NCBI GenBank assembly: GCA_046590585.1
Contig: JBKJVD010000177.1
Location: forward strand, 1-54,524
Reading direction: 5' to 3'
Length of the DNA stretch: 54,524 bases
DNA from: Thermoanaerobaculia bacterium
Lineage (GTDB): Bacteria; Acidobacteriota; Thermoanaerobaculia; Gp7-AA8
Below are positions 15,824 through 34,319 of this stretch, piece by piece. The position numbers and the translations under genes are program-made. Position 1 is the stretch's first letter. Every line of letters starts with the position of its first letter. A model generated the notes under the pieces. That model was not told where the DNA came from and did no database searches. It saw only the letters and a program-made list of their open reading frames with translations.

Positions 15824-15842
15824 CGCCAGAAAAGGGGAGTGC

Positions 15843-16952: not shown

Positions 16953-17058
16953 CACTGACTCAACTCGACCGGGAGCCTGGACCGCGCGCTGCATCCTGAA
17001 TGCTGCGCGCCGGGAGCGTGGCGCTCTTTCTGCTACGGAACACGTTCGGACATCACAC

Positions 17059-18069
17059 ATGATTCGTCGCGACATTCATCTGGACTACGACTTTTTCGAC
17101 TACACGCGGCTGGGAGATTCAGTCCCGGAGCCCGATCCAGGCTACATCGACGTTGCCCTGCTCGACATGAACCATTCGTGGCCCAACCTCGGCCACGACT
17201 CGATCGTCCACGCCCTCCTCGAGCTTGCCGAGGGGATGCGGGACCGCCTGGTTCCCGCAGGACTCAAGGTTCGCGTCCTCTCGTTCGATGTGCGCCGCAG
17301 GCTGCTGGTGCCCGGAGCCCATGACAGCCGGTTTGCCATGTACGTCGGAACCGGTGGTCCAGGTCATCTCGATCCCCGGCAGAACGACGGCGTCCACGAA
17401 TTCAGCCAGGGAATCGACGAATCTGCGGAATGGGAAGCGCCCCTGTTCCGCCTGTTCGACGCGATCGTAGGAGATCCGCAGCGGTCTCTCTTCGCCGTCT
17501 GCCACTCGTTCGGCCTGCTCTGCCGGTGGTCCGGGGTCGCTCGCGCCGAATTGCGCGAAGAGAAAAGTTCCGGCCTGCCCATGAACGTACTTTCCGCAGA
17601 TGGATTGAAGCATCCGTGGTTTTCGCGTTTCGCAGAGTCGCTCGCGGATCATCGCAGCTTCCGCGTGGTCGACAACCGTCTCTTCGACCTGGTCTGGGAA
17701 GGTGGTCGCGATGCCACTCCGATCTCGTTCGAGCGCGAGGGGAGCCCGGGATTGACGATGGTCGAACTGGCGCGCGACGCCGCCGACGGGATGCCGCGCG
17801 TGTTCGGCGTCAACCATCATCCCGAGATCATCGACCGCGAACACATCATGCAGGTTCTCGATGAGAAGCGGGAGCATGACGAGGTCTCAGAGACGTGGTA
17901 CCAGGAGCGCGCCGTCACGATGCGCGAACTGTTCGAAGGCGAGAACGAGCGGGAGAGCCGGCAGACATCCAGCTTCACGTTCCTCGAACCGATGCGTCAC
18001 CAGCTCGCCAGAAGCGTCTCGCAACGCATCGATGATCTCTCCCTCACGGCGCAACGTAACGGTAGATGA
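17059..18069 (+). CDS. Class I glutamine-amidotransferase-like protein
   Basis: Nucleophile elbow FAVCHSFGLL and a distal HHPE (His/Glu) pattern. Its last ~51 codons form the left copy of the direct repeat described in the findings. Confidence 0.65.
   Translation: MIRRDIHLDYDFFDYTRLGDSVPEPDPGYIDVALLDMNHSWPNLGHDSIVHALLELAEGMRDRLVPAGLKVRVLSFDVRRRLLVPGAHDSRFAMYVGTGGPGHLDPRQNDGVHEFSQGIDESAEWEAPLFRLFDAIVGDPQRSLFAVCHSFGLLCRWSGVARAELREEKSSGLPMNVLSADGLKHPWFSRFAESLADHRSFRVVDNRLFDLVWEGGRDATPISFEREGSPGLTMVELARDAADGMPRVFGVNHHPEIIDREHIMQVLDEKREHDEVSETWYQERAVTMRELFEGENERESRQTSSFTFLEPMRHQLARSVSQRIDDLSLTAQRNGR
17915..18069 (+). repeat. Direct repeat, left copy (functional 3' end of the GATase-like gene)
   Basis: Hand-aligned to 32786-32938. 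The first 33 nt are identical. A 6-nt versus 4-nt indel follows. The remaining ~116 nt carry 9 substitutions and include the stop codon. Confidence 0.9.
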
Positions 18070-18440
18070 GCGGGCGGAAGTATTCGCCAGGATCGCAACG
18101 CGCGGCTGAACGCTCAAAACCATTTGGGCCATAACGCACGAGAGTCGTCGCCCTGGTTTGTGGCGGTGCCGCACCGAGTTGAAGACCGGCGTCTAACTTG
18201 TCGTTGCAGCGAACCGAAGCCGCACGTTTAGTGGTCCCGAGTCTGTTATTATTCAGCGTGCGGCTCGGCCGCTGAACCTCGAACGATCAGTCTCCTCGAT
18301 CGCCGCGTGTTCAAAAGAGAGCGAGACTGGGAAAAGAGTTCGCACTGATTTAGACAGTCTGGTGCATTGAAGAGACCTCGGCCTCACGATCATGTACGCC
18401 GTTTTGAGTAGCGATCGGATTGCAAAAAGGACACTTGTTC

Positions 18441-21400
18441 ATGACTAACGGTGTGCGCAGAATTGGCCTTCTTCTCTGTGGTTTCGTGGGTGCAGTCTTC
18501 GCCGCCGGAACGGCGCAGGCGGACCTTCTCATTCAGCTCTCTCCCACCGAGCTCTCCCTGGCGCCCGGGCAATGTGGCAAGGTCACGATCACCTCCCAGC
18601 CGCAGCCTGGGTTCCCGGAGGGTGCGGCAAAGATTCGGTACGTGATCAACCGCATCTCGGGCGTCGATGTGATCGAGGCCAAAACAGCCGGTCCCGATTT
18701 TCCGCCTGTGGTGCTGTTGACCCCGGTGCACAACGCCGAGCCCGGGGCTCACTCCATGACCATTACCGCGCTCATCTCTGACAGCGCCGGAAATCAGATT
18801 GGCGACAAGATCTTTCCCGACGCCTTCACGATCACGATCGAGGCGCCGGCCAAGCTGCCTGAGTTCTCCTTCACGATCCCTGAATCCGTCGACGTGACGG
18901 CCGGCCAGGAGCTCGATGTACCGCTCGCATTACAGGCGGAGGGCTTCCAGGGGATGATGAACGTTCAGGCCCATCCGCCTCCGGGAATCTCCATCGATCA
19001 GCCGAGATTCACGATCAGCGCGGGCGAGGAGAAGATGATCCATGTCCGCGTCGCAGCGGATGCTCCGGAAAAAGGAACTCTGGAAGTTCAAGCGCAGACG
19101 AGTCTCGGCGGCCAGATGATTCTGAAGGTCTTCAGGGTCCAGGTCCGCGTTGCCAAAGCGGAGGCGGCTCCCGTCCCGCCAACTCCGCAGACGTCCGGAC
19201 CGGTCATCGGGTCGGGCGGCGAAGTTCGGTTCGAGCTCGACTCGACATCCGTCAATCTTCCGCCCGAAGGTGGCCAGCATCCATTGACGCTCACGATTGC
19301 CAGTGTGAACGGCTCCCATGGGACGGTGACCGTCGACACCAGTACGACCAACGCCGCGCTAAGCCTGGAGGGGAAGGACTGCACGCTTTCTCCCTACGAC
19401 TGCGTTCACGAACGGGTCGTCGAGATCGAACCGAATGGAGAAGTGAAACTGGAGTTTTTTGTCGTGGCCACGGCCCAGGTCGAAGAGATCGCCAAACAGA
19501 TGAACGGGGCCCGATCACTTCTGTTCCTGGCCAAGGCACCAGGGTTGGACACCAGGCGCCTCAGCTTCATCGTCGAGCTTCGCGCGGCCCCGACCCCTCT
19601 GAAAAAAGCGTATACGCTCTCGATCGATCCGCCGTCTCTCGAACTGGACGCGGGCGGCGAGGCCAGGACTGTCGAGATCCGCCTCACTCCCGCGGAAGGC
19701 TTCAACGAGGGAGTGGGCCTGACCTTTGACGGGTACAACACGAGTTCACCGGTTGAGTTGAAAAACTTCGGTCATGACGAGTCGATCTTTCAGGCAGGAC
19801 AATACGAGCCCAAGAAAGTGATCATTCAAGCCAGGGAAGGGGCGAAGCCAGGTCCCTTCTCCATGACCGTACGGGGTACGACGACCTACCAGGACGCACA
19901 CGAGCAGTCCTCGGTGAAACTCCCCATCACGATCAAAGAAGCGCTTGCCGCGACGCTGAAGATCGAGGCCGGAAACGCAGAGTTGTTCTATCCCGCGTGG
20001 AAGGACGTCAAGCTTCGCATCGAAGGGTCGAGAGGTTACTCGGGTCCGGTGACCGTGAAGGCTACCGAGACCGGTCCCTTCGAGGTGGTGCCGGATCGTC
20101 TTGAAGTGGCGTCGCTTCCTGCCACGGTGGATGTGCGCGTGCGCCTGCGACAGGCCGTGACGGGCAACACCGCCATCGAGTGGACCGTCTATGCTGCGAA
20201 CGAACGCCAACTCGCCGCGCAGAGGATTGCGTTCACGGCACTCGATCCGAAGCGCGGCGTGACGTTCACCGCACCCGCGGAGATGTCGATCTCTCCTGGC
20301 GAAGAAAAAAGCCTCGACATCGTGCTGCGCGGCGACACGTTCAAGGGTCCCGTCGACCTGATCCTCTCTCCCTCGAGCGCTCTAAATGTCATCGGCGCGC
20401 AAGTCGTCCGCACGGGGCCAGTCTCTGGCTCGCCTGCCCTGACGCTGCGCGTGCGAGCCAAACCAGACGCGACGATCGGCGAAGGTGGCCAGTCGCTCCG
20501 GCTGAACGTCAAGGCAATGTTTGGCAGCGACGAAGTGGAGATGGGCGAACACAGCATCCGGGTCCTGCTCGTCCCATCAGGCGGCGTCAAACCGGTCGAC
20601 TTCAACATCACGGTGAGCAAAACGCGCCTGGATTTGCTCCTTGGTACGGGCGAAAAAGTCACGGTCAACGTTCAACGCAACGGAGGTTGGGCCGGTCCGA
20701 TCGACTTCGAGATCAAGAACAACGACCACGTCACCGTCAACCCGGAAAAGTTCCGGCTGGAGGGATCTCAAAACTCGCAGGAAATCGAGATCTTCTCGCG
20801 TGTGAGCTTGTCAGAAGGTAGCGAAGACTCGCTCATCGTGACGGCCACGCCGTACGGCGGTGGCAGTGCGAAAGAGGCCTATATCGGCCTTCGGGCGTCG
20901 ACCCTCAAATTGCCCGAGTTCACCATTGCTACGACCCAGCCGAGTCTGCGCGTCCCGACCAATCGCCCGGGACGGATCACGGTGCGCGTAGCCGGCGTGA
21001 ATGGCTGGAACGGGCCGGTGACGCTCACGGTCGCCGACAAACCAGAGTGGTCCATCGTTCAGCCCGAGAGCGTCAACGTCGCGTCGCTTCCCGCGGAGGT
21101 GACCTTCGAGGTAACGCGAACACAGGATGAAGGAGACCCCTCGGATGTCGTGTTCTGGGGAACGGCCGGAACTACGGCGCAGAAGGCCCGGATACCGGTG
21201 CAGTTGATCGTTGGCGGAGGGCAACGCGGGCAACGCGGGACCGACGACGGCCCGTTCGGCGGCTTCCCCGCGCCTGAGGGTCCCCTGCTTTCGCTGCCGC
21301 AATCGCGCGCCGTCGCCGGGGACGTCAGGAGCTCCAACAGCCATGTGGAAGGGTTGGCTCAGGCAATGTCGACCCTGTCGGGCGCGGACATGCCAGCGGC

Positions 21401-22733
21401 AATCGCCATGCTTCAGTTGTATGAAGCGCTCCTTGCCGAAGGGCAGCGAATGGCGGGCATCCTGCCGGGTGACGAGGAGCGCGAGGAACTCAACGCTCAG
21501 CTCAATGCGGAAGTGCTGGCCAGTCAGATCGAAGAATATCGCCTCCATCCAGCGCAAGCGCGCTTCCAGACAGCGATGGTTGGTGGATTTCCCGGTTTCT
21601 TCCTGATCGAGTTGCGAGATTTTCAGCCATCCGATCTTGAAGACATCAAGATCGAGTTTTCGAAGCCGGTGAACTGGGCCACCGCGTCCAACAAAGTCGA
21701 GTTGCTCATTCTGCAGATGAGGTTCGCCCAGAAGGCGGACCAGCTCCAGGAAGACTGGACCGGACCGGCGCGCGAGCGTGTCGGACAACTGTCCGAGGGA
21801 ATCGACAGTCTTGCCGCGAAGCTCGACGAAATCACGCTGACGAAGAAAATGAAACTCGCTGACAAGGTGAAGTTCCTCGTCAGGCCTGTCGCAATCGCCG
21901 GAGCAATCTTCACCACCGCCGACATCGTGGCCAGATCAGTGGTCGCGTTCCTCCCCAACCAGATCAAGGAGTTCTACGCGCAGGTCGATAACCAGCATCG
22001 CGTGGAGGACGACAAAATCTTCCCGGTGATCAAGAAGGGAAAGAAGGTGCCCGTCAAGGTCTTCATCCTGACCAAGAACAAGGGAGGACGGATCGTCTCA
22101 CCGAAAGAGGTGGCCGACTTCTGCTACGGGAAGGTCACTGAGTCCCAGAAATTCAAGGACTGGTTCGACAAGAAGGCCGGGAGCGACAAAGCCGGCGGCG
22201 AAGGGATCTCGGACGCGGAACGCGAAAAAGCGAAAGACGAGATCCGCGCCGAGTTCTTGAAGAAGATCGAGAAGATTGCCGGCACCATCACCGGACTCCC
22301 TCCCATCAAGGAGTGGCTGGAATCCGGATGGGATGTAGCGTCGAAGGATCTCCCGGCAATTGAGGTCAACAGCAACCGCGTCTTGACGATGGAGAGTCTC
22401 TCGCCAGCCGTGCTCGCCGTTCGTGAAGCGCCTGGCTGCGAAGGCGAGCGATATTGCATGGAGGGTCTCGTCGAGACCAGGCCCGGCGAAACAGCGGGGT
22501 ATTTCTTCGCCTTCCGGAACAACCTCCGGAACGGTGTCCTGTCTGTCGTCCCAGGAGGACTCAAGGTCAACGTAAAGGCGGCCGTTATGGTGAAGGATCA
22601 GGAGGAAGTATCTTTCGAGCCGTGCTGGGTCCTCGACGGCATTGTTCACCGGGGCCAGATGCCACGCGACGTAAAGGGCGCAGCAGGACTTACCTTCGAC
22701 AAAGGCAAGACTTGCAGCTTAGGCCAAGGTTGA
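18441..22733 (+). CDS. Giant secreted protein A: signal peptide, about 8 Ig-like beta-sandwich repeats, and a ~500-aa C-terminal module of unknown family
   Basis: Signal peptide RRIGLLLCGFVGAVFAAGTAQA. Repeats of about 105 aa carry the recurrent motif G-(G/N)-(W/F/Y)-x-G-P-(V/I) (NGGWAGPIDF, VNGWNGPVTL, SRGYSGPVTV). The protein is collinear with the paralogue on the opposite strand. The start could also be the TTG at 18420. Confidence 0.85.
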   Translation: MTNGVRRIGLLLCGFVGAVFAAGTAQADLLIQLSPTELSLAPGQCGKVTITSQPQPGFPEGAAKIRYVINRISGVDVIEAKTAGPDFPPVVLLTPVHNAEPGAHSMTITALISDSAGNQIGDKIFPDAFTITIEAPAKLPEFSFTIPESVDVTAGQELDVPLALQAEGFQGMMNVQAHPPPGISIDQPRFTISAGEEKMIHVRVAADAPEKGTLEVQAQTSLGGQMILKVFRVQVRVAKAEAAPVPPTPQTSGPVIGSGGEVRFELDSTSVNLPPEGGQHPLTLTIASVNGSHGTVTVDTSTTNAALSLEGKDCTLSPYDCVHERVVEIEPNGEVKLEFFVVATAQVEEIAKQMNGARSLLFLAKAPGLDTRRLSFIVELRAAPTPLKKAYTLSIDPPSLELDAGGEARTVEIRLTPAEGFNEGVGLTFDGYNTSSPVELKNFGHDESIFQAGQYEPKKVIIQAREGAKPGPFSMTVRGTTTYQDAHEQSSVKLPITIKEALAATLKIEAGNAELFYPAWKDVKLRIEGSRGYSGPVTVKATETGPFEVVPDRLEVASLPATVDVRVRLRQAVTGNTAIEWTVYAANERQLAAQRIAFTALDPKRGVTFTAPAEMSISPGEEKSLDIVLRGDTFKGPVDLILSPSSALNVIGAQVVRTGPVSGSPALTLRVRAKPDATIGEGGQSLRLNVKAMFGSDEVEMGEHSIRVLLVPSGGVKPVDFNITVSKTRLDLLLGTGEKVTVNVQRNGGWAGPIDFEIKNNDHVTVNPEKFRLEGSQNSQEIEIFSRVSLSEGSEDSLIVTATPYGGGSAKEAYIGLRASTLKLPEFTIATTQPSLRVPTNRPGRITVRVAGVNGWNGPVTLTVADKPEWSIVQPESVNVASLPAEVTFEVTRTQDEGDPSDVVFWGTAGTTAQKARIPVQLIVGGGQRGQRGTDDGPFGGFPAPEGPLLSLPQSRAVAGDVRSSNSHVEGLAQAMSTLSGADMPAAIAMLQLYEALLAEGQRMAGILPGDEEREELNAQLNAEVLASQIEEYRLHPAQARFQTAMVGGFPGFFLIELRDFQPSDLEDIKIEFSKPVNWATASNKVELLILQMRFAQKADQLQEDWTGPARERVGQLSEGIDSLAAKLDEITLTKKMKLADKVKFLVRPVAIAGAIFTTADIVARSVVAFLPNQIKEFYAQVDNQHRVEDDKIFPVIKKGKKVPVKVFILTKNKGGRIVSPKEVADFCYGKVTESQKFKDWFDKKAGSDKAGGEGISDAEREKAKDEIRAEFLKKIEKIAGTITGLPPIKEWLESGWDVASKDLPAIEVNSNRVLTMESLSPAVLAVREAPGCEGERYCMEGLVETRPGETAGYFFAFRNNLRNGVLSVVPGGLKVNVKAAVMVKDQEEVSFEPCWVLDGIVHRGQMPRDVKGAAGLTFDKGKTCSLGQG

Positions 22734-22748
22734 AAACCAATTAAAGAT

Positions 22749-22778
22749 CTCGCCCCCGGGAACCTGCCCGGGGGCGAG
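22749..22778. terminator. Hairpin between the convergent giant genes (better terminator context for the minus-strand gene)
   Basis: CTCGCCCCCGGG-AACCTG-CCCGGGGGCGAG, a 12-bp perfect stem. On the minus strand it is followed by AGATCTTTAATTGGTTTTC. Confidence 0.6.
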
Positions 22779-22919
22779 GGGTCCTTCGGTCGCGCGGCCA
22801 GCCAGTGTTTCGGAAACCCGCTGCATCAGGTGCAGATTTGACGATCCGTTGAGCACGAACCGGCGGGTCGCCGATGCCGTGATCCGTCGCCGACGCCACG
22901 CCACGCGAGGAACCCGATT

Positions 22920-25900
22920 TCACGGCCGGTTCGACACGCATTCGCAGTTCTTCGTGATGATGCCGCCGCCCGCATACCCGAGAGCGATGTCGTGGACGGA
23001 CTCGTTCGGGAGTAGGCAGCGCTCTCCGACCGGCCCGAGGCTGCACGTACGCTGCGGAGGCGGCGTAACCTCGACAACGCCTTTTCGGAACAGCCCACAC
23101 TGCGGCGGCACGGTCGGATCGGACGGTTTCACACAAGGCAGGCCTTCGGTCGCTCGACCGAGAGCGATGATGAGCCACGGCTGCAGGCCATAGGAGTAGC
23201 CGGCGGTCTTACCGCTCTGCGTCGGCTTCAGACCCTCGATGTAGTAATGCCCCCTCGACCCTTCACCGAGCTTGATCAGCTCATTCGAACGATTGTTGTG
23301 CTGATTGTCATACTTCAATGACAGCACGCGCTCACTGTTGACGAGGAACGGCCCACGCTTATAGGGCTTGACGGTGATCGGCGCGTCGAGCTTCTGCAAC
23401 CATTCCCGCAGGGCGGGGATGCCGGCGATCCGCTTGTTGATCTCCTCGAGGATCAGGTCCTTCAGGAAATCCTTACTGTCGAAGCCCGGGATTCCTTCAC
23501 TCAGCGCTGCCTCATCTGCTTCCTGCTTCGCGTCGTTGCCCGGCGTCGTCACCTTGCCGACTCCCTTCTTCCTGCCGGCCACCTTGATTCGTCCCTTCAT
23601 TTTCTCCCACACAGGCTTGGCAACGAGTTCCGCGATCTGCGAGAGGCGGACGACTTCGCCACCGGTGGACCTGGCTGTCATGTAGACCTTCAAACTGGCC
23701 TGCGTTCCCTGCATGACCTGCGGGTCTGGCGCATCGGGCCGTTTCGAATAGCCGCCGACATTCGAGTACAGCTCAGCGATGCGGGACGGAATGATTCGCA
23801 ATTGCGCTTCCGACAGGATGTGAATGATGCTGATCGCTGTGGCGGTGGCGGACAGCGTCTTCACGGCCACCTGCCATTGTTTCAGAGTAATCTTGTCGAG
23901 TCCCCACGCCTCGATGCGATCGTTTGTCTCTTTCAGCACGTCGTTGACGATCGCGGTGTTGTTCGCCGCGACGGCGTTCTGGTTGGCCAGCCGCATCATG
24001 TTGACCAGAATTTCGACCGGCTCATGGCCACGCGCCAGGTCCCTCCAATCGACTTTGCCGCTCTTGATGTCGTTGTACATCTCCTTGTTCTCGGCCATGG
24101 AGCTGAAGTCCATCGCGAAGAGGAACGGGAACTGCCCGAGCGACGCGATCTGGAAGGGCGGTGGCAGATTCGCGCGGTTGCGACGCAGGCCACCGCGGAT
24201 GAAAAGCCTGACAATTTCGTCATCGAGAGCCGCCTCGGAGACGCGTGGCAACGTCGCACCGTGCAAGCCGAGGGATGCCTCCTCCTCAGGGTTGAGCGGC
24301 GTGCCGTTGTGGAGCTCGGCCAGCAGGGCGCTCTGCGCATTGGAGAACGCGATGAGCAACTCGATCTGCTCCGGATCGAGAACATCCTCGCCCGCTGCCG
24401 CGGCGGCCGCTGCCATACCGGTAAACGCCGCCGCGGCGTCGTCTGCCGCCGCCATCGACTTCGGAAAGGCGTCGACGCCGGCGAACGGTTCGCCCTGAGG
24501 CGCGGAAACAGGCTCCCGATGCTGCGCCCCGGGCCCGTCTTCGTCGCCGATCACACCGGTAGGAATCTGCGGCTCGATCCATTGTCCTTTTCTCGAATCC
24601 GCGACCACCACCATAGGGAGAGTTGCTGTCCGTGTCGCGCCGTCAGCGGCGACGGCGGTAACTCGCAGCGTTGCGTTTCCAGGCTGGTCCGCCGCAGTGA
24701 CCTCGACCGTCGGTTCGGATCCGGCCCTGAGCTCGCAGCAAGCCTGGCCCGGCCTCGGTTGGAGGAGCCGCTCGAGGCGTAAAGGAAATTCTATTGGCTG
24801 GATGCTCACTCCGCCGCCTTCGACGGTGACCGTGACCTTCAGGATTACGTCGACCGGCGATGACTTTGTGGCGCCTTGAGCCTTTGCGTAAACCGAAATG
24901 GACTTCTTTTGTCCCACGGTAATTCTGAGGGGCGGGGTGATCTTGCCGCCAAGAGCCTCTGCGAGGATCGGATCGTCGAACTCGGTCGTGCCTTCCGGCT
25001 GACGGGCGGTTTGCGGCGGAGGCGGCTGCTCGACGCTCCACTTCTGATTGCCGCCATCCCAGCACGGGCGAAGAATCACTGCGTGCGTTGGATCGCTCGC
25101 GTTGGGCTCCATGCACTTTACGAACTCGCGGCCGATGAGACGGCTCGACGAGTCGAACGTCCACGTTTCGTTCATGTTGCCGCTGTTGCTGCAGGTCCAG
25201 AGAATGATCGGCGTGTCGTCGGTTGTCTGGTTGGAGGTGAGAACGGCGCACTTGCCGCCATTCTGGATCTCGCCGTTCGGACCGAAGGTGAACGTCTGCG
25301 CCTCGACGAGCGATCCGCAGGCGGCCATCACCAGATGCGCTCCGTCGCCGTGCCCGTTGTTCTCGATGGTCAGGCAGTTTCCGTACTCGCGGTTCTTCAA
25401 CATGCCCGAGGCGGCCGGGAAGTGTCTGGCGAGTTTGGCCGTCTTGATCGCCAGCCCCACATACGCTTCTCGCGACGGGCCGCCGCCATCGGGCGACGCT
25501 TTCACCATCAGCGACGGCTCTACGCCGGCGGTCAGGGCGGCATCGCCGCGCGCGGTCACTTCGAACTCCTGCGACGCTCGTCCGGCGTCGAGGCGGAATC
25601 GATCGGGGCGGATGGTGACCTTGTCGTTCCCGCTCACTACCACATCGACGGCGCCGTTCCAGCCACTGCCCCGACGCACCGACAGCGTCACGCCCCCGCT
25701 TTGTCCGGGCAGCAGCTCCAATCGGCTCGGATCGACGGCCACCGTGAAGTCCGCCGCTCCGGCTTTGACCTCGGAACGGATATTCGTCTCGGCGATGAGA
25801 TTGCGATTGGCATGCGCGCGCACTTTGACGTTGACGTATGCGTAGTGATCGGGAGCGGCATTGGGAAGGGCCTTGACCGTGATCTCATGACTTCCCGGAA

Positions 25901-27227
25901 GATGATCGATGGCGAAGCTCTCTTCGCTGACTGTCGTCCCTCCTGCGCTTCCTTTCGCCGTTACGTCGACCGCGCCGCTCCATCCGTTTTCGCCTTTGAC
26001 GGTAATCTGTACTCGCCTCTCTTCGCCCGGTGACAGCTCGAATGCGCCGGGTTCGACGAGCACGCTCGCCGTGGCGTCGCGGTCGGCGATGTTGATCTTC
26101 AATGACGACGACGGAGAGTCGGACGCAAATGCTTCGCCTCCGGCTGCGCCCGTGATCTTCATTTCGAATTCGCCCGGCGCGGCGTCGCCTGCAGCGCGCA
26201 CTGTGATTCGCTTCGGTGCTGTGTCGGCGCTCTGAAAAACATCCTGCTCATACTCGGTTTGCCAGGGCACGCGCGGATCGTGACCTTCCCATCTCAACGC
26301 AACGCCGTTCGTGAAGTCCGCCGCGCGTGTCAGGTGTACTTCGATCGTTTTTACCTCGCCCGGTTTCAGGGTGATGTTGTCGGGCTTGATGGCGATTGAA
26401 AACCCCTTGCCCCCGGGAACCTGCGGCGGCGGTGTTGAGACTGTCGCACCAGCCAGTTTGATATTGACCGTCACAGCCTCGCCGATCGGCTGGTTCGCGC
26501 TGTTGTATGGCGTAATCGGCCAGTCGAGACCTTCCGGCGCCATCTCCGCCTTTTCATGCGCGCGAATGGTGAATTTCGCGTCGGTGTAGGAGCCATCCGG
26601 TTGTTTCTTCACCTTGATGTTGCAGAGGTCAGCGATGACGTGCGTCCCCATGACGGCGAAGCTCCAGCGAACCTCGGGGTCCTGGCAGTCGCCGTTCGTG
26701 TGCACGACGACTTGAGTCCCTTTGAAGTCCCTCGTCAACTCGATGGCCGCCGGTTCGACCGTAGCCGTGCAGGGAACTGAGGGAGCCGGTGCTGCGTCAG
26801 TGACGCTCAACCGGACGATGCCGAACATGAAATCAATGGAATTACCGGGCGTGTCCTCGAAGGAGCCCCACAGCGGGCCGCTGTAGCGCCCTGCCGGGAC
26901 GTTCGACGGGACGGTGATCGTGACCATCACCGAAGACATGGTGTTGTCGCTGCGCGTCGACGTCTGCGGCGAGTCCGTCGTGATGCCGACTTGCTGGCCG
27001 CTCGCGGAGGTGAGGTCGAGTTTGTAGACGACCGACGTGACGCCAGGGGGAGTATTGGTGTTCGTCAGTGTATTGACGGTGATGGTCTCCGCGGTGCCGG
27101 CGGCCATGGTGAAGTTGTTCGGCGTCACGGTTACATCGAACTGCGCCTGCGCCGATGCGCTGACACTCCACCCAATGCACCCCAGCATGAATGCCGCAGC
27201 GAGACACACGAAACGAGACGAGCGCAT
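22920..27227 (-). CDS. Giant secreted protein B: signal peptide, Ig-like repeats, ricin-type beta-trefoil lectin insert, and a paralogous ~490-aa C-terminal module
   Basis: AGGAGA RBS. Signal peptide MRSSRFVCLAAAFMLGCIGWSVSASAQA. Repeat motifs ENGWSGAVDV and GSGWNGAVDV. Hand alignment to protein A is collinear along the whole length. Confidence 0.85.
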   Translation of the reverse strand: MRSSRFVCLAAAFMLGCIGWSVSASAQAQFDVTVTPNNFTMAAGTAETITVNTLTNTNTPPGVTSVVYKLDLTSASGQQVGITTDSPQTSTRSDNTMSSVMVTITVPSNVPAGRYSGPLWGSFEDTPGNSIDFMFGIVRLSVTDAAPAPSVPCTATVEPAAIELTRDFKGTQVVVHTNGDCQDPEVRWSFAVMGTHVIADLCNIKVKKQPDGSYTDAKFTIRAHEKAEMAPEGLDWPITPYNSANQPIGEAVTVNIKLAGATVSTPPPQVPGGKGFSIAIKPDNITLKPGEVKTIEVHLTRAADFTNGVALRWEGHDPRVPWQTEYEQDVFQSADTAPKRITVRAAGDAAPGEFEMKITGAAGGEAFASDSPSSSLKINIADRDATASVLVEPGAFELSPGEERRVQITVKGENGWSGAVDVTAKGSAGGTTVSEESFAIDHLPGSHEITVKALPNAAPDHYAYVNVKVRAHANRNLIAETNIRSEVKAGAADFTVAVDPSRLELLPGQSGGVTLSVRRGSGWNGAVDVVVSGNDKVTIRPDRFRLDAGRASQEFEVTARGDAALTAGVEPSLMVKASPDGGGPSREAYVGLAIKTAKLARHFPAASGMLKNREYGNCLTIENNGHGDGAHLVMAACGSLVEAQTFTFGPNGEIQNGGKCAVLTSNQTTDDTPIILWTCSNSGNMNETWTFDSSSRLIGREFVKCMEPNASDPTHAVILRPCWDGGNQKWSVEQPPPPQTARQPEGTTEFDDPILAEALGGKITPPLRITVGQKKSISVYAKAQGATKSSPVDVILKVTVTVEGGGVSIQPIEFPLRLERLLQPRPGQACCELRAGSEPTVEVTAADQPGNATLRVTAVAADGATRTATLPMVVVADSRKGQWIEPQIPTGVIGDEDGPGAQHREPVSAPQGEPFAGVDAFPKSMAAADDAAAAFTGMAAAAAAAGEDVLDPEQIELLIAFSNAQSALLAELHNGTPLNPEEEASLGLHGATLPRVSEAALDDEIVRLFIRGGLRRNRANLPPPFQIASLGQFPFLFAMDFSSMAENKEMYNDIKSGKVDWRDLARGHEPVEILVNMMRLANQNAVAANNTAIVNDVLKETNDRIEAWGLDKITLKQWQVAVKTLSATATAISIIHILSEAQLRIIPSRIAELYSNVGGYSKRPDAPDPQVMQGTQASLKVYMTARSTGGEVVRLSQIAELVAKPVWEKMKGRIKVAGRKKGVGKVTTPGNDAKQEADEAALSEGIPGFDSKDFLKDLILEEINKRIAGIPALREWLQKLDAPITVKPYKRGPFLVNSERVLSLKYDNQHNNRSNELIKLGEGSRGHYYIEGLKPTQSGKTAGYSYGLQPWLIIALGRATEGLPCVKPSDPTVPPQCGLFRKGVVEVTPPPQRTCSLGPVGERCLLPNESVHDIALGYAGGGIITKNCECVSNRP
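25029..25412 (-). other. Ricin-type beta-trefoil lectin domain (CBM13-like) inside protein B
   Basis: Three subrepeats have a G-x-C-hydrophobic start and a QxW-like end: GNCLT..EAQTFTF, GGKCAV..NETWTF and FVKCME..NQKWSV. Confidence 0.75.
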
Positions 27228-27291
27228 GAACTCTCCTGAGCCCTGAATAATCTACGAAAAGAGAAAGACCAGAAGACTCAATCTGTCAGTA

Positions 27292-27305
27292 TGTTACAAG
27301 TAACA
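27292..27305. promoter_or_regulatory. Perfect palindrome TGTTAC-AA-GTAACA in the divergent B/C intergenic region (candidate operator or UAS)
   Basis: 6-bp perfect inverted half-sites with a 2-bp spacer. It lies about 90-100 bp upstream of the sigma-54-like element at 27390 and about 65 bp upstream of the gene B start codon. Confidence 0.45.
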
Positions 27306-27389
27306 CTAAACAACGAAGCGGAGCCTTTCAGGTTGAAAAGAGCGTACGTCAAAAGTGTAGAAAGAACAGGCGCGCCACTGAGCGGAAAC

Positions 27390-27404
27390 TGGCTGCCCAT
27401 TTGC
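27390..27404 (+). promoter_or_regulatory. Candidate sigma-54 (-24/-12) promoter of giant gene C
   Basis: TGGCTG-CCCAT-TTGCG compared with TGGCAC-N5-TTGCW. The GG/GC spacing is correct and both the TGGC and TTGC cores are intact. It lies about 70 nt upstream of the ATG at 27475. Confidence 0.5.
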
Positions 27405-27474
27405 GGCCGACGGCTGGCAGTGTTGAGTGTGCGCGCCTCTTGACATGAGTTATTTTTCAGGTTCAGGGGGAACG

Positions 27475-30400
27475 ATGCCGATTCAAATTCGTCGAGTGTT
27501 TTCGTGCGTGACGATGGTCCTGTTGCTGCTCTGCGCCGGCAGCGTTCACGCGCAGGGACGAGTGAAAGAAGATCGGGAAACCCCTGTTGCCATTTGGCCG
27601 GACGATCCCTCCGACAGCCGTGGGGATCGCCGCGGAAATGATCCCCAACACCTGCCCGGAGAGGACTCCACTCTTTTCCCCAGTCCCAACGCTGGAACGT
27701 TCACGCTCGAGCCGAGCAACCTCTCTGTCCAGCTCACCAAGGGGATCACCACCTCCATCAACATCCGCGTCATTCCCAGCGGAGGTTTCAGTGATCCAGT
27801 TCAGATCACGACCTCTGGCTCCATTCAGGGCGGGAACGTATCGAACAGTCCAGCCATCATTTCGCCGCCGTACGATCAGACCTCGACGATCTTACTGTCG
27901 GCGACCAACGCCACGCCTTCCGGGCAATACTCGATCAGCATTCTCGGTCAGGCCGGAACCACGACCGTCAGTACGGGACTGTTCGTCAATGTGGTGGCCG
28001 CAGGGGAAGCCACGTTCGGGTTCTCTCTTTTTCCCAACAATGTGGATGTCGTCAAGGGCAGTGGGTTTGCAACGAGCGTCGAGACGTTTACAACCGGCAG
28101 TTTCACCACGCCCATCAACTACTCGATCAGCGGTCTTCCGGCCGGGGTCACCGTAACCGGCCTGCCTCAGACCCTGCAGGCCCCCTACGCCGACATTCCC
28201 GTCGTCTTTTCAGCCACGTCGAGCGCGGTGCCCGGCACCTATACGACAACCGTAGTTACCGGAACGGCTGGCAGCCTGACCTTGACGAAACCGGTCACCA
28301 TCGTGGTGCGGGGCACGGCTGTCGGCGAATACAGCTTCCATGTCGATCCCGTGCCGATCTTCGTGACCGCGGGCGGGCGTCAACTCCTCACGCTCACAGT
28401 CACGTCGTTCGGCGGCTTCTCCGGCGTCGTTACCGTGAATCACGCCGAGTCCCATCCGTCGATCTTTGTCTTGAACAAGAACTGTCCTCTGTCAGGCGGC
28501 CCTTCGTGCCCAATCCAGAACATTCCGCTCAATGTGCCGGCCGGCGGCAGCGTTTCGGAACAAGTGCTCGTGTCCGTCACACCGACCTCGCCAGGCGGAT
28601 CGATCATATTCACGACTTCCACGCCGGGCCTTCCTGACGAGGTTTCAACCTACAGCGTGGATATCGGCGCGCAACCCCCGGGTTTCGACCTCCACGCGGA
28701 CCCTGTCAATCCGACGATTGCCCAGGGTCAAAGCCGTCAGATCACAGTCACGCTCACACGCCTCGACGGCTTCACCGGCGCGGTGCCCGTCGAAGTCACG
28801 GCGCAACCTGGATTCACCTTTGCCGAGCCTCTTCCGATTATCTTCGCTCCGGGAGAGACCTCCAAACCCCTGACGCTCCAGGTCGGCGCAAGTGTGACCC
28901 CCGCGACGAATTACACGGTCAATCTCTTCGCTAGTGTGCCGTCGATCTCCGCCTCAACGGGTGCAACCATTGTCGTGAACGTCACGCCGGCGCCGTCAGC
29001 AGGTAATTTCTTTCTGTTCCCCACTCCGGGCACCATCACGGCCCAACAGGGACAGAGCGGCACGACCACGATCAACCTCACTCGTAGTGGAGGATTCACC
29101 GGCCCCGTCACCGTGGATGCCACCATCGCCGGGGGCCCGGTTGCCGGCTCGGGCTACACCATCACGCCTGCCCTTCCCTTTACCTTCGCCGCTGGAGAGA
29201 CCACGAAGCAGGTCACGATCACTCCCGACACCACCGTCCCGGTGGGAACACACACGGTCACCTTCATGGGCACGGCCAGCGGCATCGGGACCAGGAACTG
29301 TAATGTGCTGGTCAACGTGACGGCCGCGCCGTTAGTCCCGGACTTCACATTCGCAGTCACGCCGAATCCGGTCTCCGTGACGCAGAACGCCAGCACGACC
29401 GCGACCGCCACCATCACGCGAAGCGGTGGCTTCAACGGCGACGTGAATGTCAGCGGTACGACCGGCGCACAGGGAGTGACGATCGGCTCAGTCACGATCC
29501 CCGCCGGCCAGACGACCGCAACGCTCACGATCGTCGCAACGTCCAGCGCGACGACCGGCCCCTCCACCATCAACTTCAGCGCGGCCGCGCCCAGCATCCC
29601 CAAGACTCTGACCTCCGTCATCAACCTGACGGTCGTCGCACAACAGGCTCCGGCCGACTTCACGATCAACGTCGCTCCATCAGAGATTCAGGTCAACGCG
29701 GGTGGAACCGGCCTGGTCACCATGACTCTCACCCGCCAGAATTTCACCGGCAATGTCACCGTCAATGCAACAGGCGGCGCCGGCATCACGATCACGCCCC
29801 AGACGTTCACGTTCAGCGGTACGACGACGCAGGCCTTCAACATTCTCGTAGCCCCCGACGCCCCGGCCGGACGCACGCCGATCTCGTTCACCGCGACTTC
29901 GACCGCTCTCCCTGGCGTGACCCGTTCCGCGAGCGCGGGAGTGACCGTAATTCCTGTGAGCACCGGTGCCCCGATCATCAGCTCGATCACGCCGTCCGCG
30001 CTCGTGGCTGGCGCACAGAGAGCTGTGGTCGTTCTCGCCGGTCGCAATTTCGTGGCCGGAGCGCAGATCTTCTCCAATCGAACGGACGTGGTCGTCGAGA
30101 GCGCGGAGATTCAATCCGACTCGATCGCAATCGTTGTCGTCACCGTGAATCCCTTCGCTGAAGCCGGCCCAACGACGTTCCGCCTGCGGAATCCAAACGG
30201 TCTGACCACCGCGCAGGGAGTCGAGTTGATCGTCTACGAGGAGGGTGACATCGGAGCGCCCCTCGGCGTGACCGCTGCCGCGATTCTCAGTCCTCTCGGC
30301 GGGAAGATCGTCACCAACGTGGATCGTCCCTACGCCACCGGCGTCGTCGCGACCTCGGGAACCGGCACGATCAGCGGCCGCTGGCTGTTCGACGGCGGCA

Positions 30401-32721
30401 CGTTCGACAGTTTCACGATCACCGTTTCCGCCGGTGAGCCGGCCATGGTGACCTCGCGCGTTCCGCTGCCGTCATCGCACGCCGGACCCCACCAGCTTCA
30501 ACTCGTGATCGATGTGCCGCAACAGGCGCAGTCCGCCGCCATTGCCATTCGTATGGCCATCGATAGCGCGAGCAATCTGACCATCCTCGGCCCGGTCGGC
30601 CAGAGCGGAGGCTCGGGAAACGCGGGCGACGCAATGACCCTCCGCTGGTCGATGGTCCCCGGCGCCCAGGGTTACGTCGTCGAGCTGACCCGCGAGGGAC
30701 AGCCGTTCCCGTCCCAGGTTGAAGTCGGACAGGAAGCGGAATTGCCGATCGATGCCGCCGATCTGCCCACCGGCGGCGGCCCGGTTCGTTGGCGCGTTGC
30801 ACCGATGTACTGTTGCTCGGGCAACGACTCCTATGCCGGGACGTTCTCCGATTGGAGCGACCTGCCACTCGATCGAAGCGCACGCGGGGAGCGCGAGCTG
30901 TTCGAATCGATCCGCGACACGGCCATCGCCGAGGCGATGACGCCACGACTGAAGTATCAGCTCGCCCGTCTCGCCGCGAGCGACAGTGACGAGAACTTGT
31001 TGCTCGATTCGTCCACCTACCAGCTCGCCCAGGGAACAGCGCCTGCCCGTACCGGCGCAGCAGGAACGAAATCGAGCCTGCGCTCCGACTGGTCCGTCGT
31101 TCCGATGGCCACCTCGACGTACACCCGTCACGCGACCGATCAGGATGGCTCGATCCAACTCTCGGGTCAGGGCGATCTGGGACTCCCGCCGCTTGCCAGC
31201 AAGTACACGACCGACTTCACTGGAGCGAACATTTACGGTGACGACTTCACCTTCCGGGGCAGCCGCAACTGGATTGTGAACGTCGGCAATGCCAAAGCAT
31301 CAAAGCGGGTCATAAGACCGGAGGCGACCTTTGGCTATGGTCCACCGGACTTCTTCCGCGGAGCGCAACTGGTGACTTCATCGCTGGCGCGTGGGGGTGC
31401 CCTCGGGCGCGTCTCCACCCGCTTCGGCTCCCTTGCGTATTACTCAACCTTCACCGACGCGCTCGACGGAGTCATCGGCGGCAACTTCGGGATGCAGCAG
31501 AAGCTCGATGCCGTGGCGCTCGAATTCCATGAAACGAAGAAGCTCTCGTTCAAGATCATCAGCATGCACGTCGAGGACCTTCCGCTGGCGAGCCAGAGCG
31601 CTCCGCGGGGCGAAGGACGTTCGCTCGGGTTCCTGACCTCGTACAAAGTGAGCCCGAAGCTGCAGCTCGTGGCCGAGGCTTCCCGCGGACGAGGAGAATG
31701 GACCACGCGCGACGGACTGCGCGAGCGCGAAGGGGACGCCTTCCGCATCGGAATGTCGGGCATGCGCGGAAGGACCTCGTACCGCGCCGATTTCAATCAC
31801 ACCGACAGCGACTACGCCAACCCAGGCAACCGTGGCTTCACGGCGGCGTCCATTCCGAACCGCACGGGAGGAAGCCTGAGTATCACCCGCCCCGTCGGTC
31901 GCGGCTCCGCCACCCTGGCCTTGAAACATCAGACCCAGACCCGGTCGTCCATTACCGCGGACGCTACGGGACTGAATTTGTCGTACAACCTGCAACTGAA
32001 GCCGTCCGTCAGTCTGAGTGCGACGGCGAACACGAACGTCGACTCGGCCGACGCGGACACGCAGAGGCGCCTGCCAGGGACCGATCGCCAGCAGCGCGGC
32101 GGCACAGTCACCCTGTCCGAGCGATACGGCCGTCTCAACCTCTCGCAGACTCTCGCCCATCAACGGCTGAACGACGATGTGAATCTGAGCGCGACGAACA
32201 ACGTCACCACGCTCACACTCAGCGGCGGCGGGACAATCGTGCCGAACTTCAATCTCTTCGCCACGTCGACGGTCATTCACAGTGCCGCCGCGCCGACCGT
32301 TGGCGACGGCGACAACATAACGTTCTCATTGCAGCCATCCTTCGCCATACCCCGACTCAATCTGTCGCTGCAGCCGCGCCTGTCGTACAACTTCAACGAC
32401 AATGATTTCCGCCGCACCAGCAATCGGGGCGAGCAGTACGCGGCGCTGATGCAGTGGAGTCCGGACTGGTTCAACAAGATCGGAGCGTTACAGCTCTCTT
32501 CGAACTGGAACCGCACCGAGGATGAACTGCAGGGACGCACGAACCGTTCGCTGAACCGCTCGTACGTCGGCACGTTCACGCTGAAGTGGGGCGAAGGAGT
32601 CGGTGCCGACATGTTTCGCCGCCACAAGCTGCCCGGTGAGCTGCCGGTTACCGGCCGCCAGGGTGCCAGCCAGGATCCGATCAATGGCAGAACGTCCGCG
32701 ACGGCGGGCTCCAGGAAGTAA
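27475..32721 (+). CDS. Giant outer-membrane protein C: signal peptide, at least 7 Ig-like repeats, IPT/TIG domain, further beta-sandwich domains, and a large C-terminal beta-barrel
   Basis: AGGGGGA RBS. Signal peptide VFSCVTMVLLLLCAGSVHA. Repeat motifs (SGGFSDPVQI, FGGFSGVVTV, LDGFTGAVPV, SGGFTGPVTV, SGGFNGDVNV) recur every ~105-115 aa. The C-terminal ~500 aa show alternating-hydrophobic strands. Confidence 0.85.
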   Translation: MPIQIRRVFSCVTMVLLLLCAGSVHAQGRVKEDRETPVAIWPDDPSDSRGDRRGNDPQHLPGEDSTLFPSPNAGTFTLEPSNLSVQLTKGITTSINIRVIPSGGFSDPVQITTSGSIQGGNVSNSPAIISPPYDQTSTILLSATNATPSGQYSISILGQAGTTTVSTGLFVNVVAAGEATFGFSLFPNNVDVVKGSGFATSVETFTTGSFTTPINYSISGLPAGVTVTGLPQTLQAPYADIPVVFSATSSAVPGTYTTTVVTGTAGSLTLTKPVTIVVRGTAVGEYSFHVDPVPIFVTAGGRQLLTLTVTSFGGFSGVVTVNHAESHPSIFVLNKNCPLSGGPSCPIQNIPLNVPAGGSVSEQVLVSVTPTSPGGSIIFTTSTPGLPDEVSTYSVDIGAQPPGFDLHADPVNPTIAQGQSRQITVTLTRLDGFTGAVPVEVTAQPGFTFAEPLPIIFAPGETSKPLTLQVGASVTPATNYTVNLFASVPSISASTGATIVVNVTPAPSAGNFFLFPTPGTITAQQGQSGTTTINLTRSGGFTGPVTVDATIAGGPVAGSGYTITPALPFTFAAGETTKQVTITPDTTVPVGTHTVTFMGTASGIGTRNCNVLVNVTAAPLVPDFTFAVTPNPVSVTQNASTTATATITRSGGFNGDVNVSGTTGAQGVTIGSVTIPAGQTTATLTIVATSSATTGPSTINFSAAAPSIPKTLTSVINLTVVAQQAPADFTINVAPSEIQVNAGGTGLVTMTLTRQNFTGNVTVNATGGAGITITPQTFTFSGTTTQAFNILVAPDAPAGRTPISFTATSTALPGVTRSASAGVTVIPVSTGAPIISSITPSALVAGAQRAVVVLAGRNFVAGAQIFSNRTDVVVESAEIQSDSIAIVVVTVNPFAEAGPTTFRLRNPNGLTTAQGVELIVYEEGDIGAPLGVTAAAILSPLGGKIVTNVDRPYATGVVATSGTGTISGRWLFDGGTFDSFTITVSAGEPAMVTSRVPLPSSHAGPHQLQLVIDVPQQAQSAAIAIRMAIDSASNLTILGPVGQSGGSGNAGDAMTLRWSMVPGAQGYVVELTREGQPFPSQVEVGQEAELPIDAADLPTGGGPVRWRVAPMYCCSGNDSYAGTFSDWSDLPLDRSARGERELFESIRDTAIAEAMTPRLKYQLARLAASDSDENLLLDSSTYQLAQGTAPARTGAAGTKSSLRSDWSVVPMATSTYTRHATDQDGSIQLSGQGDLGLPPLASKYTTDFTGANIYGDDFTFRGSRNWIVNVGNAKASKRVIRPEATFGYGPPDFFRGAQLVTSSLARGGALGRVSTRFGSLAYYSTFTDALDGVIGGNFGMQQKLDAVALEFHETKKLSFKIISMHVEDLPLASQSAPRGEGRSLGFLTSYKVSPKLQLVAEASRGRGEWTTRDGLREREGDAFRIGMSGMRGRTSYRADFNHTDSDYANPGNRGFTAASIPNRTGGSLSITRPVGRGSATLALKHQTQTRSSITADATGLNLSYNLQLKPSVSLSATANTNVDSADADTQRRLPGTDRQQRGGTVTLSERYGRLNLSQTLAHQRLNDDVNLSATNNVTTLTLSGGGTIVPNFNLFATSTVIHSAAAPTVGDGDNITFSLQPSFAIPRLNLSLQPRLSYNFNDNDFRRTSNRGEQYAALMQWSPDWFNKIGALQLSSNWNRTEDELQGRTNRSLNRSYVGTFTLKWGEGVGADMFRRHKLPGELPVTGRQGASQDPINGRTSATAGSRK
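29965..30237 (+). other. IPT/TIG-like domain within protein C
   Basis: PIISSITPSALVAGAQRAVVVLAGRNFVAGAQIF....TFRLRNPNGLT matches the usual IPT/TIG pattern (P-x-I-x-S-I-x-P, G-x-N-F). Confidence 0.6.
31069..32589 (+). other. Predicted outer-membrane beta-barrel region of protein C
   Basis: Many 8-12-residue amphipathic strands separated by G/N/D/S/R turns (SLSITRPVG, ATLALKHQT, GLNLSYNLQL, SVSLSATAN, TVTLSERYG, LNLSQTLAH). A beta-signal-like last strand, YVGTFTLKW, is followed by a 43-aa charged tail. Confidence 0.55.
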
Positions 32722-32785
32722 CTCGCCACAAACGTGTGCGGGACGGCCTCCATCGGCCGCCCCGCTTAGCCGTAATGCTCAGGCA

Positions 32786-32938
32786 TCACGATGCGCGAAC
32801 TGTTCGAAGGCGAGAACGCGCCAGAGCCGGCAGACATCCAGCTTCACGTTCCTCGGACCGATGCGTAACCATCTAGCCAGAAGCGTGTCGCTACGCATCG
32901 ACGATCTCTCGCTCACGGCCCAACGTAACGGTAGATGA
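32786..32938 (+). pseudogene. Direct repeat, right copy: frameshifted relic of the GATase-like gene 3' end
   Basis: It aligns to 17915-18069 with 9 substitutions plus a 2-nt net deletion. There is no upstream gene body. The first 33 nt are out of frame with the remainder relative to the intact gene. Confidence 0.85.
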
Positions 32939-32943
32939 ACGGC

Positions 32944-32968
32944 ACCTGGGCGCGCAGCGCGCCCAGGT
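32944..32968. terminator. GC hairpin directly after the relic stop codon (possibly the ancestral terminator of the GATase-like gene)
   Basis: ACCTGGGCGCG-CAG-CGCGCCCAGGT, an 11-bp stem with no U-tract. Confidence 0.4.
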
Positions 32969-33126
32969 GAATCTCACGAGATTGCCGTCAAATCACTCGA
33001 TGCCACGGCACCGCCAGGATCCCATCGGCGACCCTTGGGTTGCGCGACAGCGGGGAAAGAACACACTCGCCAGCTCCGAGAGCTTCCTCCGCGATCATCT
33101 CTACGGGGCACATCGGCCCGGGTACG

Positions 33127-34254: not shown

Positions 34255-34319
34255 GAGGCCCGGTTCACAGCCTCTGAGCCTGCCGCTTGCATGGATGGGC
34301 AGCAGGACGAGAGAACGAC

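Follow-up and report, generated by a model that had tools for sequence, protein, structure and literature searches.

A 14.7-kb insertion without a recombinase gene, bracketed by imperfect copies of an amidotransferase-fold gene end, in an uncultured member of the Thermoanaerobaculia

The window analysed here comprises 54,524 nt of the forward strand of contig JBKJVD010000177.1 (GCA_046590585.1), a metagenome-derived sequence from an uncultured member of the Acidobacteriota (Thermoanaerobaculia). Its central part holds a gene pair that encodes a carboxylate-amine ligase (GCS2) and an amidotransferase-fold protein (GAT), three giant genes (G1 to G3) and, further downstream, yvcK and glmU (Table 1). 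GCS2 and GAT stand side by side in all 83 related loci that served as the comparison set. The start of yvcK was set from homology and sequence at the ATG at 33214 and not at the TTG at 33040. A scan of GTDB genomes returned 80 loci, all of them at or below 68% identity, and the species of the window and its close relatives are not represented in that collection.

Table 1. Features around the interrupted GAT-yvcK junction, in window coordinates
Feature	Position	Strand	Basis
GCS2/YbdK-type carboxylate-amine ligase, conserved upstream partner of GAT	15843..16952	+	Pfam GCS2 3.8e-60; NCBIfam PRK13515 9.5e-156
GAT, 336 aa, predicted class I glutamine-amidotransferase / gamma-glutamyl peptidase fold	17059..18069	+	AF2 and Foldseek
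Left direct repeat, 159 nt, the GAT 3' end in its functional form	17915..18073	+	MAFFT, repeat finding, global alignment
Identical core, 32-33 nt, common to both repeats; junction of the island-free allele	17915..17947 = 32786-32818	+	
Island interior, 14,712 bp, with G1 to G3, four short spacers and no mobility genes	18074..32785	.	
G1, 1430-aa putative secreted orphan protein; ORF open from TTG at 18420	18441..22733	+	Signal-peptide-like N-terminus
G2, 1435-aa putative secreted protein, ricin-type lectin domain and Ig/fn3-like repeats	22920..27227	-	Pfam Ricin_B_lectin 6.3e-19, fn3_6, Cep192_D3
G3, 1748-aa putative secreted Thr/Ser/Gly-rich protein; ORF open from GTG at 27427	27475..32721	+	
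Right direct repeat, 157 nt, a relic GAT 3' end with a frameshift, closing with the same TAGATGA	32786..32942	+	
GC-rich hairpin immediately past the relic stop, with a 12-bp stem and a 3-nt loop	32943..32969	+	Fold z = -4.8 versus shuffles
yvcK (CofD-related), conserved downstream neighbour	33214..34254	+	Pfam CofD 1.9e-102; TIGR01826
glmU, second conserved downstream gene	34287..35717	+	TIGR01173 2.2e-173; synteny

No Pfam or NCBIfam model matches GAT, and a sequence-profile search of the PDB with its family gave no meaningful match, so that a fold search was needed. The AF2 model of GAT (pLDDT 88.8) finds its best Foldseek matches in gamma-glutamyl peptidase 1 (9k7j, E 6.5e-10) and in glutamine amidotransferases (E 1e-8 to 1e-10). 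Among 20 homologs, C148 and the stretch H253-H254-P255-E256 are invariant, and so are the C-terminal residues E295, E297, R298, S300, T303, S304, T307 and P311. Judged from this model and from the homologs, GAT combines the GATase1 fold, the cysteine nucleophile and the H-P-E motif that define the class I glutamine amidotransferase fold. A conserved and hitherto unannotated pair of a GCS2 and an amidotransferase-fold gene can thus be recognised in Thermoanaerobaculia.

The last ~51 codons of GAT fall inside the left of two imperfect direct repeats. An earlier reading made from the sequence only had described these repeats as ~154-bp copies of the GAT 3' end that share their first 33 nt, differ by a 6-versus-4-nt indel and nine substitutions, and close with the same TAGATGA. 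Alignment bears this out and lengthens the copies to 159 and 157 nt. The identical core measures 32-33 nt and is followed by a 2-nt indel (GAGCGG versus GCGC); the substitutions amount to 12, with nine between the indel block and TAGATGA and three further ones, two at the indel block and one just past the stop. Overall the copies show 7.6% divergence and are 91% identical. Their homology stops 4 nt past the stop codon, and upstream of the repeats local alignments scored no higher than shuffled sequences. A 20-nt match downstream (18084-18103 versus 33011-33029) was equalled in 15 of 500 shuffles and was left unused as marginal. For a 29-nt block taken from the unit, the window yields exactly two occurrences where chance predicts 0, and each of the 83 related loci carries the GAT 3' end only once. 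Neither of two patterns that had been named as contrary to an insertion, a dispersed multicopy unit or relatives that keep both copies, was therefore seen. A scan of JGI metagenome contigs with the 29-nt block gave 0 matches, a weak negative, as it also missed the positive control, the contig of the closest relative (L001, 86% identity), despite a match found locally.

No gene body precedes the right copy, whose translation requires a change of frame, in agreement with its earlier description as a relic. Four changes are specific to the left copy (three synonymous and one Q->E), and a 2-nt deletion and seven substitutions are specific to the right one. Because the four amino-acid changes of the relic affect positions that vary in the family alignment, only the 2-nt deletion reads as clearly inactivating. 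The two copies have 19 states in common that differ from L001, and thus both come from the same lineage. The identity of the first 32 nt next to a remainder that is ~10% diverged has a probability of about 0.03 by chance.

The GC-rich hairpin behind the relic had been noticed at 32944-32968 and taken for the ancestral terminator of the interrupted gene. Folding supports a hairpin there, one nucleotide wider at either end. It has no T-run and is consequently not called by a consensus terminator scan; scans of both junctions for consensus terminators and promoters returned nothing, the hairpin being detected by folding alone. A comparable hairpin (z = -4.4) follows the GAT stop in L003, a related locus with an empty site. 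There is none behind the left copy (z = -0.45). The structure is probably the original post-gene hairpin.

Between the repeats, the interval 18070-32785 (14,716 bp) contains three ORFs (1437, 1435 and 1764 aa), all of which have a signal-peptide-like segment at the N-terminus, and searches against Pfam and NCBIfam uphold the earlier statement that integrase, transposase and phage genes are missing. No recombinase was found with these models in the three island genes or in the 28 other ORFs of the whole 54.5-kb contig, and the island spacers, at 347, 186, 199 and 64 nt, are too short to accommodate a decayed recombinase gene. Remnants of ICEs, IMEs or phages were seen neither in the island nor on the contig. 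G1 has no homolog besides itself at E<=1e-10 among 5.8 billion clusters. G2 is a distant paralog of G1 (25-34% identity in patches), and JGI metagenome contigs scanned with G2 gave 82 pattern matches and 0 relatives. The best homolog of G3 shows 35% identity across 31% of the protein; its 90% cluster has a single member, and its homologs are found in unrelated genomic contexts. All three genes are absent from the 83 related loci, so that they are not fixed at this position across the lineage. The Ig/fn3-like and lectin-bearing giant secreted products are probably surface or matrix proteins, and we flag these very large proteins, one of them without a detectable homolog, as strain-specific surface cargo.

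The 14.7-kb block is a real insertion at the ancestral GAT-yvcK junction. About 29 of the 83 related loci have yvcK-glmU directly behind GAT, at a distance of 19-270 nt, as the sequence-only reading had anticipated for an empty site; in L003 the spacer between GAT and yvcK measures 55 nt and contains the strong hairpin. In other relatives the spot downstream of GAT holds unrelated cargo without repeats, namely PMT_2, an IS110 transposase or DUF72, and no GAT-end relic that would indicate repeated use of the GAT 3' end as a target was found in the other genomes (83 loci). Transposon-type target duplication is ruled out by the lack of a transposase, by the length of 157 nt and by the lack of terminal inverted repeats, which local alignments failed to reveal above the level of shuffles; to our knowledge 157 nt far exceeds known target duplications.

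The island itself is found in one contig only, and a near-identical island-free allele comes from another sample (SRR31159417). This allele, L002, is a Logan short-read contig of 2.2 kb assembled at k=31, in which window positions 16770-17947 are fused to 32786-33876 with exactly 14,871 bp missing. The order is GAT gene body, relic copy, hairpin and yvcK. The junction lies inside the identical core, and the frameshifted copy is retained as the gene end, so that GAT is truncated to 312 aa and its conserved C-terminal helix is lost. Elsewhere the contig differs from the window by one synonymous SNP, at 16832, which marks it as an independent genotype. Occupied and precisely deleted states are hence both present in almost identical genomes. 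That L002 represents the ancestral state was judged less likely, as a conserved enzyme would then need a pre-insertion frameshift that removes eight invariant residues. Exact-protein look-ups with GAT, G3, YvcK and GCS2 of the window, aimed at longer island-free contigs, found none of these proteins on record, and a literature search on SRR31159417 found nothing.

We favour, with moderate confidence, the explanation that this is a lineage-specific island which arose by the insertion, through a single crossover, of DNA that brought along a copy of the GAT gene end, and which now lacks an integrase while its repeats still recombine. A circular DNA with one copy of the GAT end would have entered by a Campbell-type event, and such an event would leave the repeat topology seen here. 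The left copy would now complete GAT, and the right copy would be the displaced original end, still joined to its hairpin and to yvcK and inactivated by the 2-nt deletion. The divergence of the copies may have arisen after insertion or may have come in with the inserted DNA. As no recombinase is encoded on the island, host functions acting on the repeats would be responsible for its gain and loss, either through recombination within the identical core or through an enzyme encoded elsewhere. That the repeats still recombine is suggested by the precise deletion product in the near-identical strain. Neither a circular form nor a donor of the island was seen. This kind of insertion is already known, and the case is unusual only for the lack of an own recombinase and for its orphan cargo. 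For an uncultured soil phylum, it gives a clean natural example of genes being gained and lost at a conserved junction without an island-encoded recombinase.

The closest parallel that we considered is the island of the microcin H47 system in E. coli. This 13-kb island lacks recombinase genes and is bordered by imperfect direct repeats of 148 and 144 bp; its excision takes place in stretches where the repeats are identical and does not require RecA (PMC3191183, PMC5426353). Both islands are small and have long imperfect repeats, both lack integrase and excisionase genes and would leave recombination to host functions, and in both a hybrid product is joined in a stretch of identity, represented here by one short-read contig. 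The H47 repeats, however, share 76% identity and contain four stretches of identity, whereas one dominant core at the edge characterises the more similar copies of the present island. The att sequences of H47 occur widely in E. coli and are not described as a restored gene end, whereas the unit seen here is the end of GAT and is confined to this lineage. Excision, integration and RecA independence of H47 were proven by experiment; the counterpart here is one natural island-free allele. The present case supports the idea, drawn so far mainly from the H47 island, that long imperfect repeats and host recombination suffice to mobilise or delete islands.

A rather unlikely alternative is a classical site-specific element, in which a tyrosine or serine recombinase recognised the GAT 3' end and an attP site brought the replacement gene end, the enzyme having since been lost (as in a CIME) or acting in trans from elsewhere in the genome. 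The layout of the repeat, with a core at its 5' edge and a diverged extension up to the stop, is that of a gene-restoring element, and the precise island-free allele with its junction in the core also speaks for it. CIMEs are by definition decayed ICEs or IMEs that keep attL and attR without the genes for integration and transfer (PMC5704250). As in CIMEs, the direct repeats of the present island include the target gene 3' end and genes for integration and transfer are missing; what sets it apart is the absence of any sign of descent from an ICE or IME, of a cognate ICE, IME or integrase for the site and of an accretion partner. No related element turned up in the collections. SGI1 at trmE, an integrative island that enters and restores the 3' end of a protein-coding gene (PMC8409611), resembles our case in that the end of a housekeeping-type gene is hit and duplicated, the gene stays intact and the displaced copy lies at the far end. 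Islands of this type nevertheless encode their own integrase, excisionase and mobilisation functions, of which there are none here, and their repeats are short, nearly identical and found at the same target in many genomes, which is not so at GAT. Against a site-specific element thus speak the recombinase-free island and contig with spacers too short for a decayed gene, the lack of ICE, IME or phage remnants, the lack of a second use of the GAT target among the 83 related loci and the repeat-free inserts of relatives at the same spot. Altogether, direct repeats with a core and an empty site are shared with site-specific integrative islands (GI, IME or ICE), but an element-encoded integrase (tyrosine, serine or DDE) and a recurrent target site are not. 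The earlier proposal of an island that integrated at a gene 3' end while restoring the gene hence holds for the insertion, which the empty sites establish, and is tentative in its analogy with site-specific islands.

The insertion could also have proceeded without a circle, which we regard as improbable. Linear DNA would have been caught at a staggered or resected break, with fill-in duplicating ~157 nt, or the gene end would first have been duplicated in tandem and the cargo inserted later. The two copies are mutually closest in view of their 19 shared states, as a duplication within the genome predicts, and the lack of mobility genes and the near-native composition also fit. The tandem version demands two rare events, however, and the break-capture version an unusually long stagger; we know of no bacterial precedent for a stagger duplication of this size. 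Furthermore, neither version explains the contrast between the identical first 32 nt and the diverged remainder.

Highly doubtful, too, is a more far-reaching idea, namely that the gene-end repeat is a working attachment cassette of a recombinase-free island which moves between Thermoanaerobaculia strains by host recombination only, with loss not being neutral and carriage coupled to the integrity of GCS2 and GAT. If this were true, excision would leave the frameshifted copy and strip the conserved C-terminal helix from an amidotransferase-fold enzyme, and orphan giant surface proteins would be tied to a gamma-glutamyl ligase/peptidase pair as a built-in addiction or switch.

An assembly artefact, in which a separate 14.9-kb molecule was threaded in via the core or the L002 contig follows a chimeric path across it, is scarcely credible: the window is a metagenome-derived contig, and in L002, a short-read contig, a core barely longer than k=31 makes such a path through the graph possible, but assemblers do not make imperfect repeats with an indel, a core of this length should presumably not join molecules at the larger k usual for MAG assembly, and a 14.9-kb circle of three secreted-protein genes would have no replication function. 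L002 moreover runs unbroken across the core with its own SNP, and no fragments of G1 or G3 are on record from its sample or any other among 15 billion proteins, which argues against a k-mer chimera of an island-bearing strain.

The composition of the island is only mildly atypical and close to that of the host. Its tetranucleotide distance (0.165) lies above all of 25 control chunks (0.10-0.128), a shift that may reflect the amino-acid composition of the giant proteins. Its GC content is 61.7% versus 62.6% in the host, and its synonymous codon distance is 0.039 with a control maximum of 0.044. As codon usage and GC3 lie within or near the host range, a foreign origin is not evident from composition. 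A greedy ORF call on the minus strand (13940-15865) is probably an over-extended esterase ORF that overlaps a real plus-strand gene (compare L001 and L003), and its influence on the codon statistics is negligible.

The 14.7-kb segment carrying three giant genes (G1, G2 and G3) downstream of GAT, a gene for an amidotransferase-fold protein, is an insertion. The sequence-only reading had proposed as much, and the proposal is supported by about 29 empty sites, by the island-free contig L002 and by the lack of G1, G2 and G3 homologs in all 83 related loci that were retrieved and in which the flanking genes were located. In about 29 of these 83, GAT is followed by yvcK-glmU within 19-270 nt; the spacer of the empty site L003 measures 55 nt and contains a strong hairpin. 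Eight loci hold 0.5-3 kb of other DNA without repeats at this junction, which is a recurrent variable spot (see table).

The two direct copies of the GAT 3' end that bracket the island were confirmed by alignment, repeat finding and global alignment. The last of these shows no difference over the first 32-33 nt (the core), followed by a 2-nt indel and 12 substitutions; the nine substitutions counted earlier by hand are those between the indel block and the common TAGATGA. Homology ends 4 nt past the stop codon, and none was found upstream of the copies. The window contains exactly two occurrences of a 29-nt block of the repeat unit, where chance alone would give zero, and the probability of the identical core lying at the 5' edge by chance is ~0.03. 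No gene body precedes the right copy, and translation requires a frame change for read-through, in keeping with its earlier description as a relic. A 20-nt similarity (CGCCAGGATC...) also lies 3' of both copies (18084-18103 and 33011-33029, offsets +11 and +69). It was equalled in 15 of 500 shuffles and could be the trace of a longer original duplication broken by the hairpin region, or chance.

Features of the island boundaries, the flanking genes and the cargo at the same junction in related loci
Feature	Location	Coordinates	Size or remark
YbdK/GCS2-type carboxylate-amine ligase	left flank	15843-16952	
GAT	left flank	17059-18069	336 aa
Left copy	window	17915-18073	159 nt
Right copy	window	32786-32942	157 nt
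yvcK	right flank		most likely start ATG 33214
glmU	right flank, with yvcK		
PMT_2 glycosyltransferase	L001	10986-12557	junction cargo
PMT_2 glycosyltransferase	L004	about 11000-12500	junction cargo
IS110-family transposase and aspartyl-protease/PDZ gene	L066	11149-13863	junction cargo
DUF72	L080	10813-11748	junction cargo

The closest database protein to GAT, P0001 (312 aa), comes from L002, a 2,236-bp Logan contig of run SRR31159417 in which window positions 16770-17947 are fused to 32786-33876, with exactly 14,871 bp absent. The junction falls within the core, where a crossover that depends on identity would naturally occur; L002 retains the right copy with its frameshift as well as the hairpin and yvcK. 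Outside the repeat, the sole difference from the window is a synonymous T/C SNP at 16832 in the GCS2 gene (GCT/GCC, Ala), and L002 is therefore a separate, nearly identical genotype. We consider it probable that L002 represents a real island-free allele. It could in principle be a k=31 graph path through the core, but on assembler logic an island-bearing strain should yield a two-in, two-out branch there, where contigs normally break, and no G1 or G3 fragment from any other sample was present among 15 billion proteins. The 90% clusters of G1 and G3 each contain nothing besides the window protein itself.

Occupied and deleted forms would thus constitute a natural allele pair at one junction, in which loss of the island would truncate a conserved gene. 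The last ~51 GAT codons lie inside the repeat and account for the greater part of a long C-terminal helix (295-335), modelled with confidence, in which eight residues are invariant. L002 is less likely to be the untouched ancestor, because a conserved enzyme would then already have lacked these residues.

In order to polarize the differences between the copies, L001, the closest relative, was used as outgroup. Nineteen states are common to both copies and differ from L001, so both copies stem from this lineage or one very near to it and have no distant donor. Private changes number four in the left copy (three synonymous, one Q->E), and seven substitutions plus a 2-nt deletion in the right copy. 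The copies diverge by 7.6%, as against one SNP in 2.2 kb between the flanks of the window and L002. Two timelines fit these sequence comparisons: an old insertion whose copies diverged in place, with a recent deletion giving L002, or a recent insertion of DNA whose gene end came from a related strain and had already diverged by about 7%; the 2-nt deletion in the displaced copy and then island loss in L002 would have followed. The four amino-acid changes of the relic all fall in variable alignment columns and so do not decide between the two. The right copy is probably the original gene end, marked by a strong hairpin (z = -4.8) like that after the L003 stop codon (z = -4.4), whereas no such hairpin follows the left copy (z = -0.45); the original post-gene hairpin of the sequence-only reading is upheld accordingly.

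If a circle bearing one copy of the gene end recombined with the chromosome by a single crossover, a block of DNA would come to lie between gene-end direct repeats; the enzyme could be either a site-specific recombinase or part of the recombination machinery of the host. A classical integrative element is disfavoured by several observations: the contig has neither a recombinase nor space for a decayed one, none of the other genomes among the loci examined uses the GAT-end target, no terminal inverted repeats were found, and island composition is near the host's (GC 61.7% vs 62.6%; GC3 in range; synonymous codon distance 0.039 vs a control of 0.028 +/- 0.004, maximum 0.044). Neither the island, whose four spacers measure 347, 186, 199 and 64 nt, nor the rest of the 54,524-bp NCBI contig, which the window spans in full, yielded integrase, transposase or phage genes. 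Going by the names of its homologs, the contig belongs to Thermoanaerobaculia in the phylum Acidobacteriota. The tetranucleotide distance (0.165) exceeds the controls (0.10-0.128), which may reflect the atypical amino-acid composition of the giant proteins.

By analogy, the closest described case is the E. coli H47 island, which spans 13 kb between 148/144-bp imperfect repeats, lacks recombinase genes, and excises independently of RecA and all 16 K-12 site-specific recombinases, leaving hybrid junctions within identity stretches (PMC3191183, PMC5426353). CIMEs, decayed ICE/IME elements that retain attL and attR (PMC5704250), share the anatomy of the present island, but for the latter ICE or IME descent would be conjectural. 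Islands such as SGI1 at trmE likewise insert at a gene's 3' end and rebuild it, but encode an integrase of their own (PMC8409611). The island would accordingly resemble H47-type or CIME-type elements and stand apart from integrase-bearing families. Its points of interest are the allele pair, the truncation of GAT upon loss and the orphan giant cargo.

Each of the three ORFs that make up this cargo, about 1430, 1435 and 1748 aa long, has an N-terminus resembling a signal peptide. In G2 there is a ricin-type lectin domain along with hints of Ig/fn3 similarity, and G1 is its distant paralog (25-34% identity in patches). G1 (18441-22733), a 1430-aa secreted protein, has neighbouring G2 as its sole relative; at E<=1e-10, 5.8 billion protein clusters returned only G1 itself. 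The best G3 homolog reaches 35% identity over 31% of its length, in unrelated genomic contexts. No G2 relatives were found in JGI contigs, a weak negative, as are all from the metagenome_contigs collection, which lacks some JGI contigs reachable via the protein tools: a pattern locally matching the JGI-derived L001 was not found there.

Neither Pfam nor NCBIfam has a model that GAT matches. Its AlphaFold model (pLDDT 88.8) retrieves gamma-glutamyl peptidase 1 and class I glutamine amidotransferases in Foldseek (E about 1e-9); the label 'amidotransferase-like' holds because of these matches and because C148 and the H253-H254-P255-E256 motif do not vary among 20 homologs. GAT lacks a family model even though it has more than 2,600 homologs. 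The GCS2/YbdK-type ligase and GAT adjoin in 83/83 Thermoanaerobaculia loci, and have the appearance of a gamma-glutamyl ligase/peptidase pair that is conserved but unannotated.

Two mechanically called ORFs are too long. That of yvcK, called from TTG 33040, is most likely over-extended across 33040-33213. The minus-strand 641-aa 'esterase' ORF (13940-15865) probably combines a 235-aa esterase with the antisense of a real plus-strand gene (14789-15823), as in L001 and L003. Elsewhere in the window, a ~9-nt unit (GGTTCCTCG) and its complement (CGAGGAACC) are arrayed at 5841-5873, 50041-50146 and 54358-54505, in or near intergenic DNA. These inverted arrays could fold into long hairpins and resemble a family of dispersed REP-like elements.
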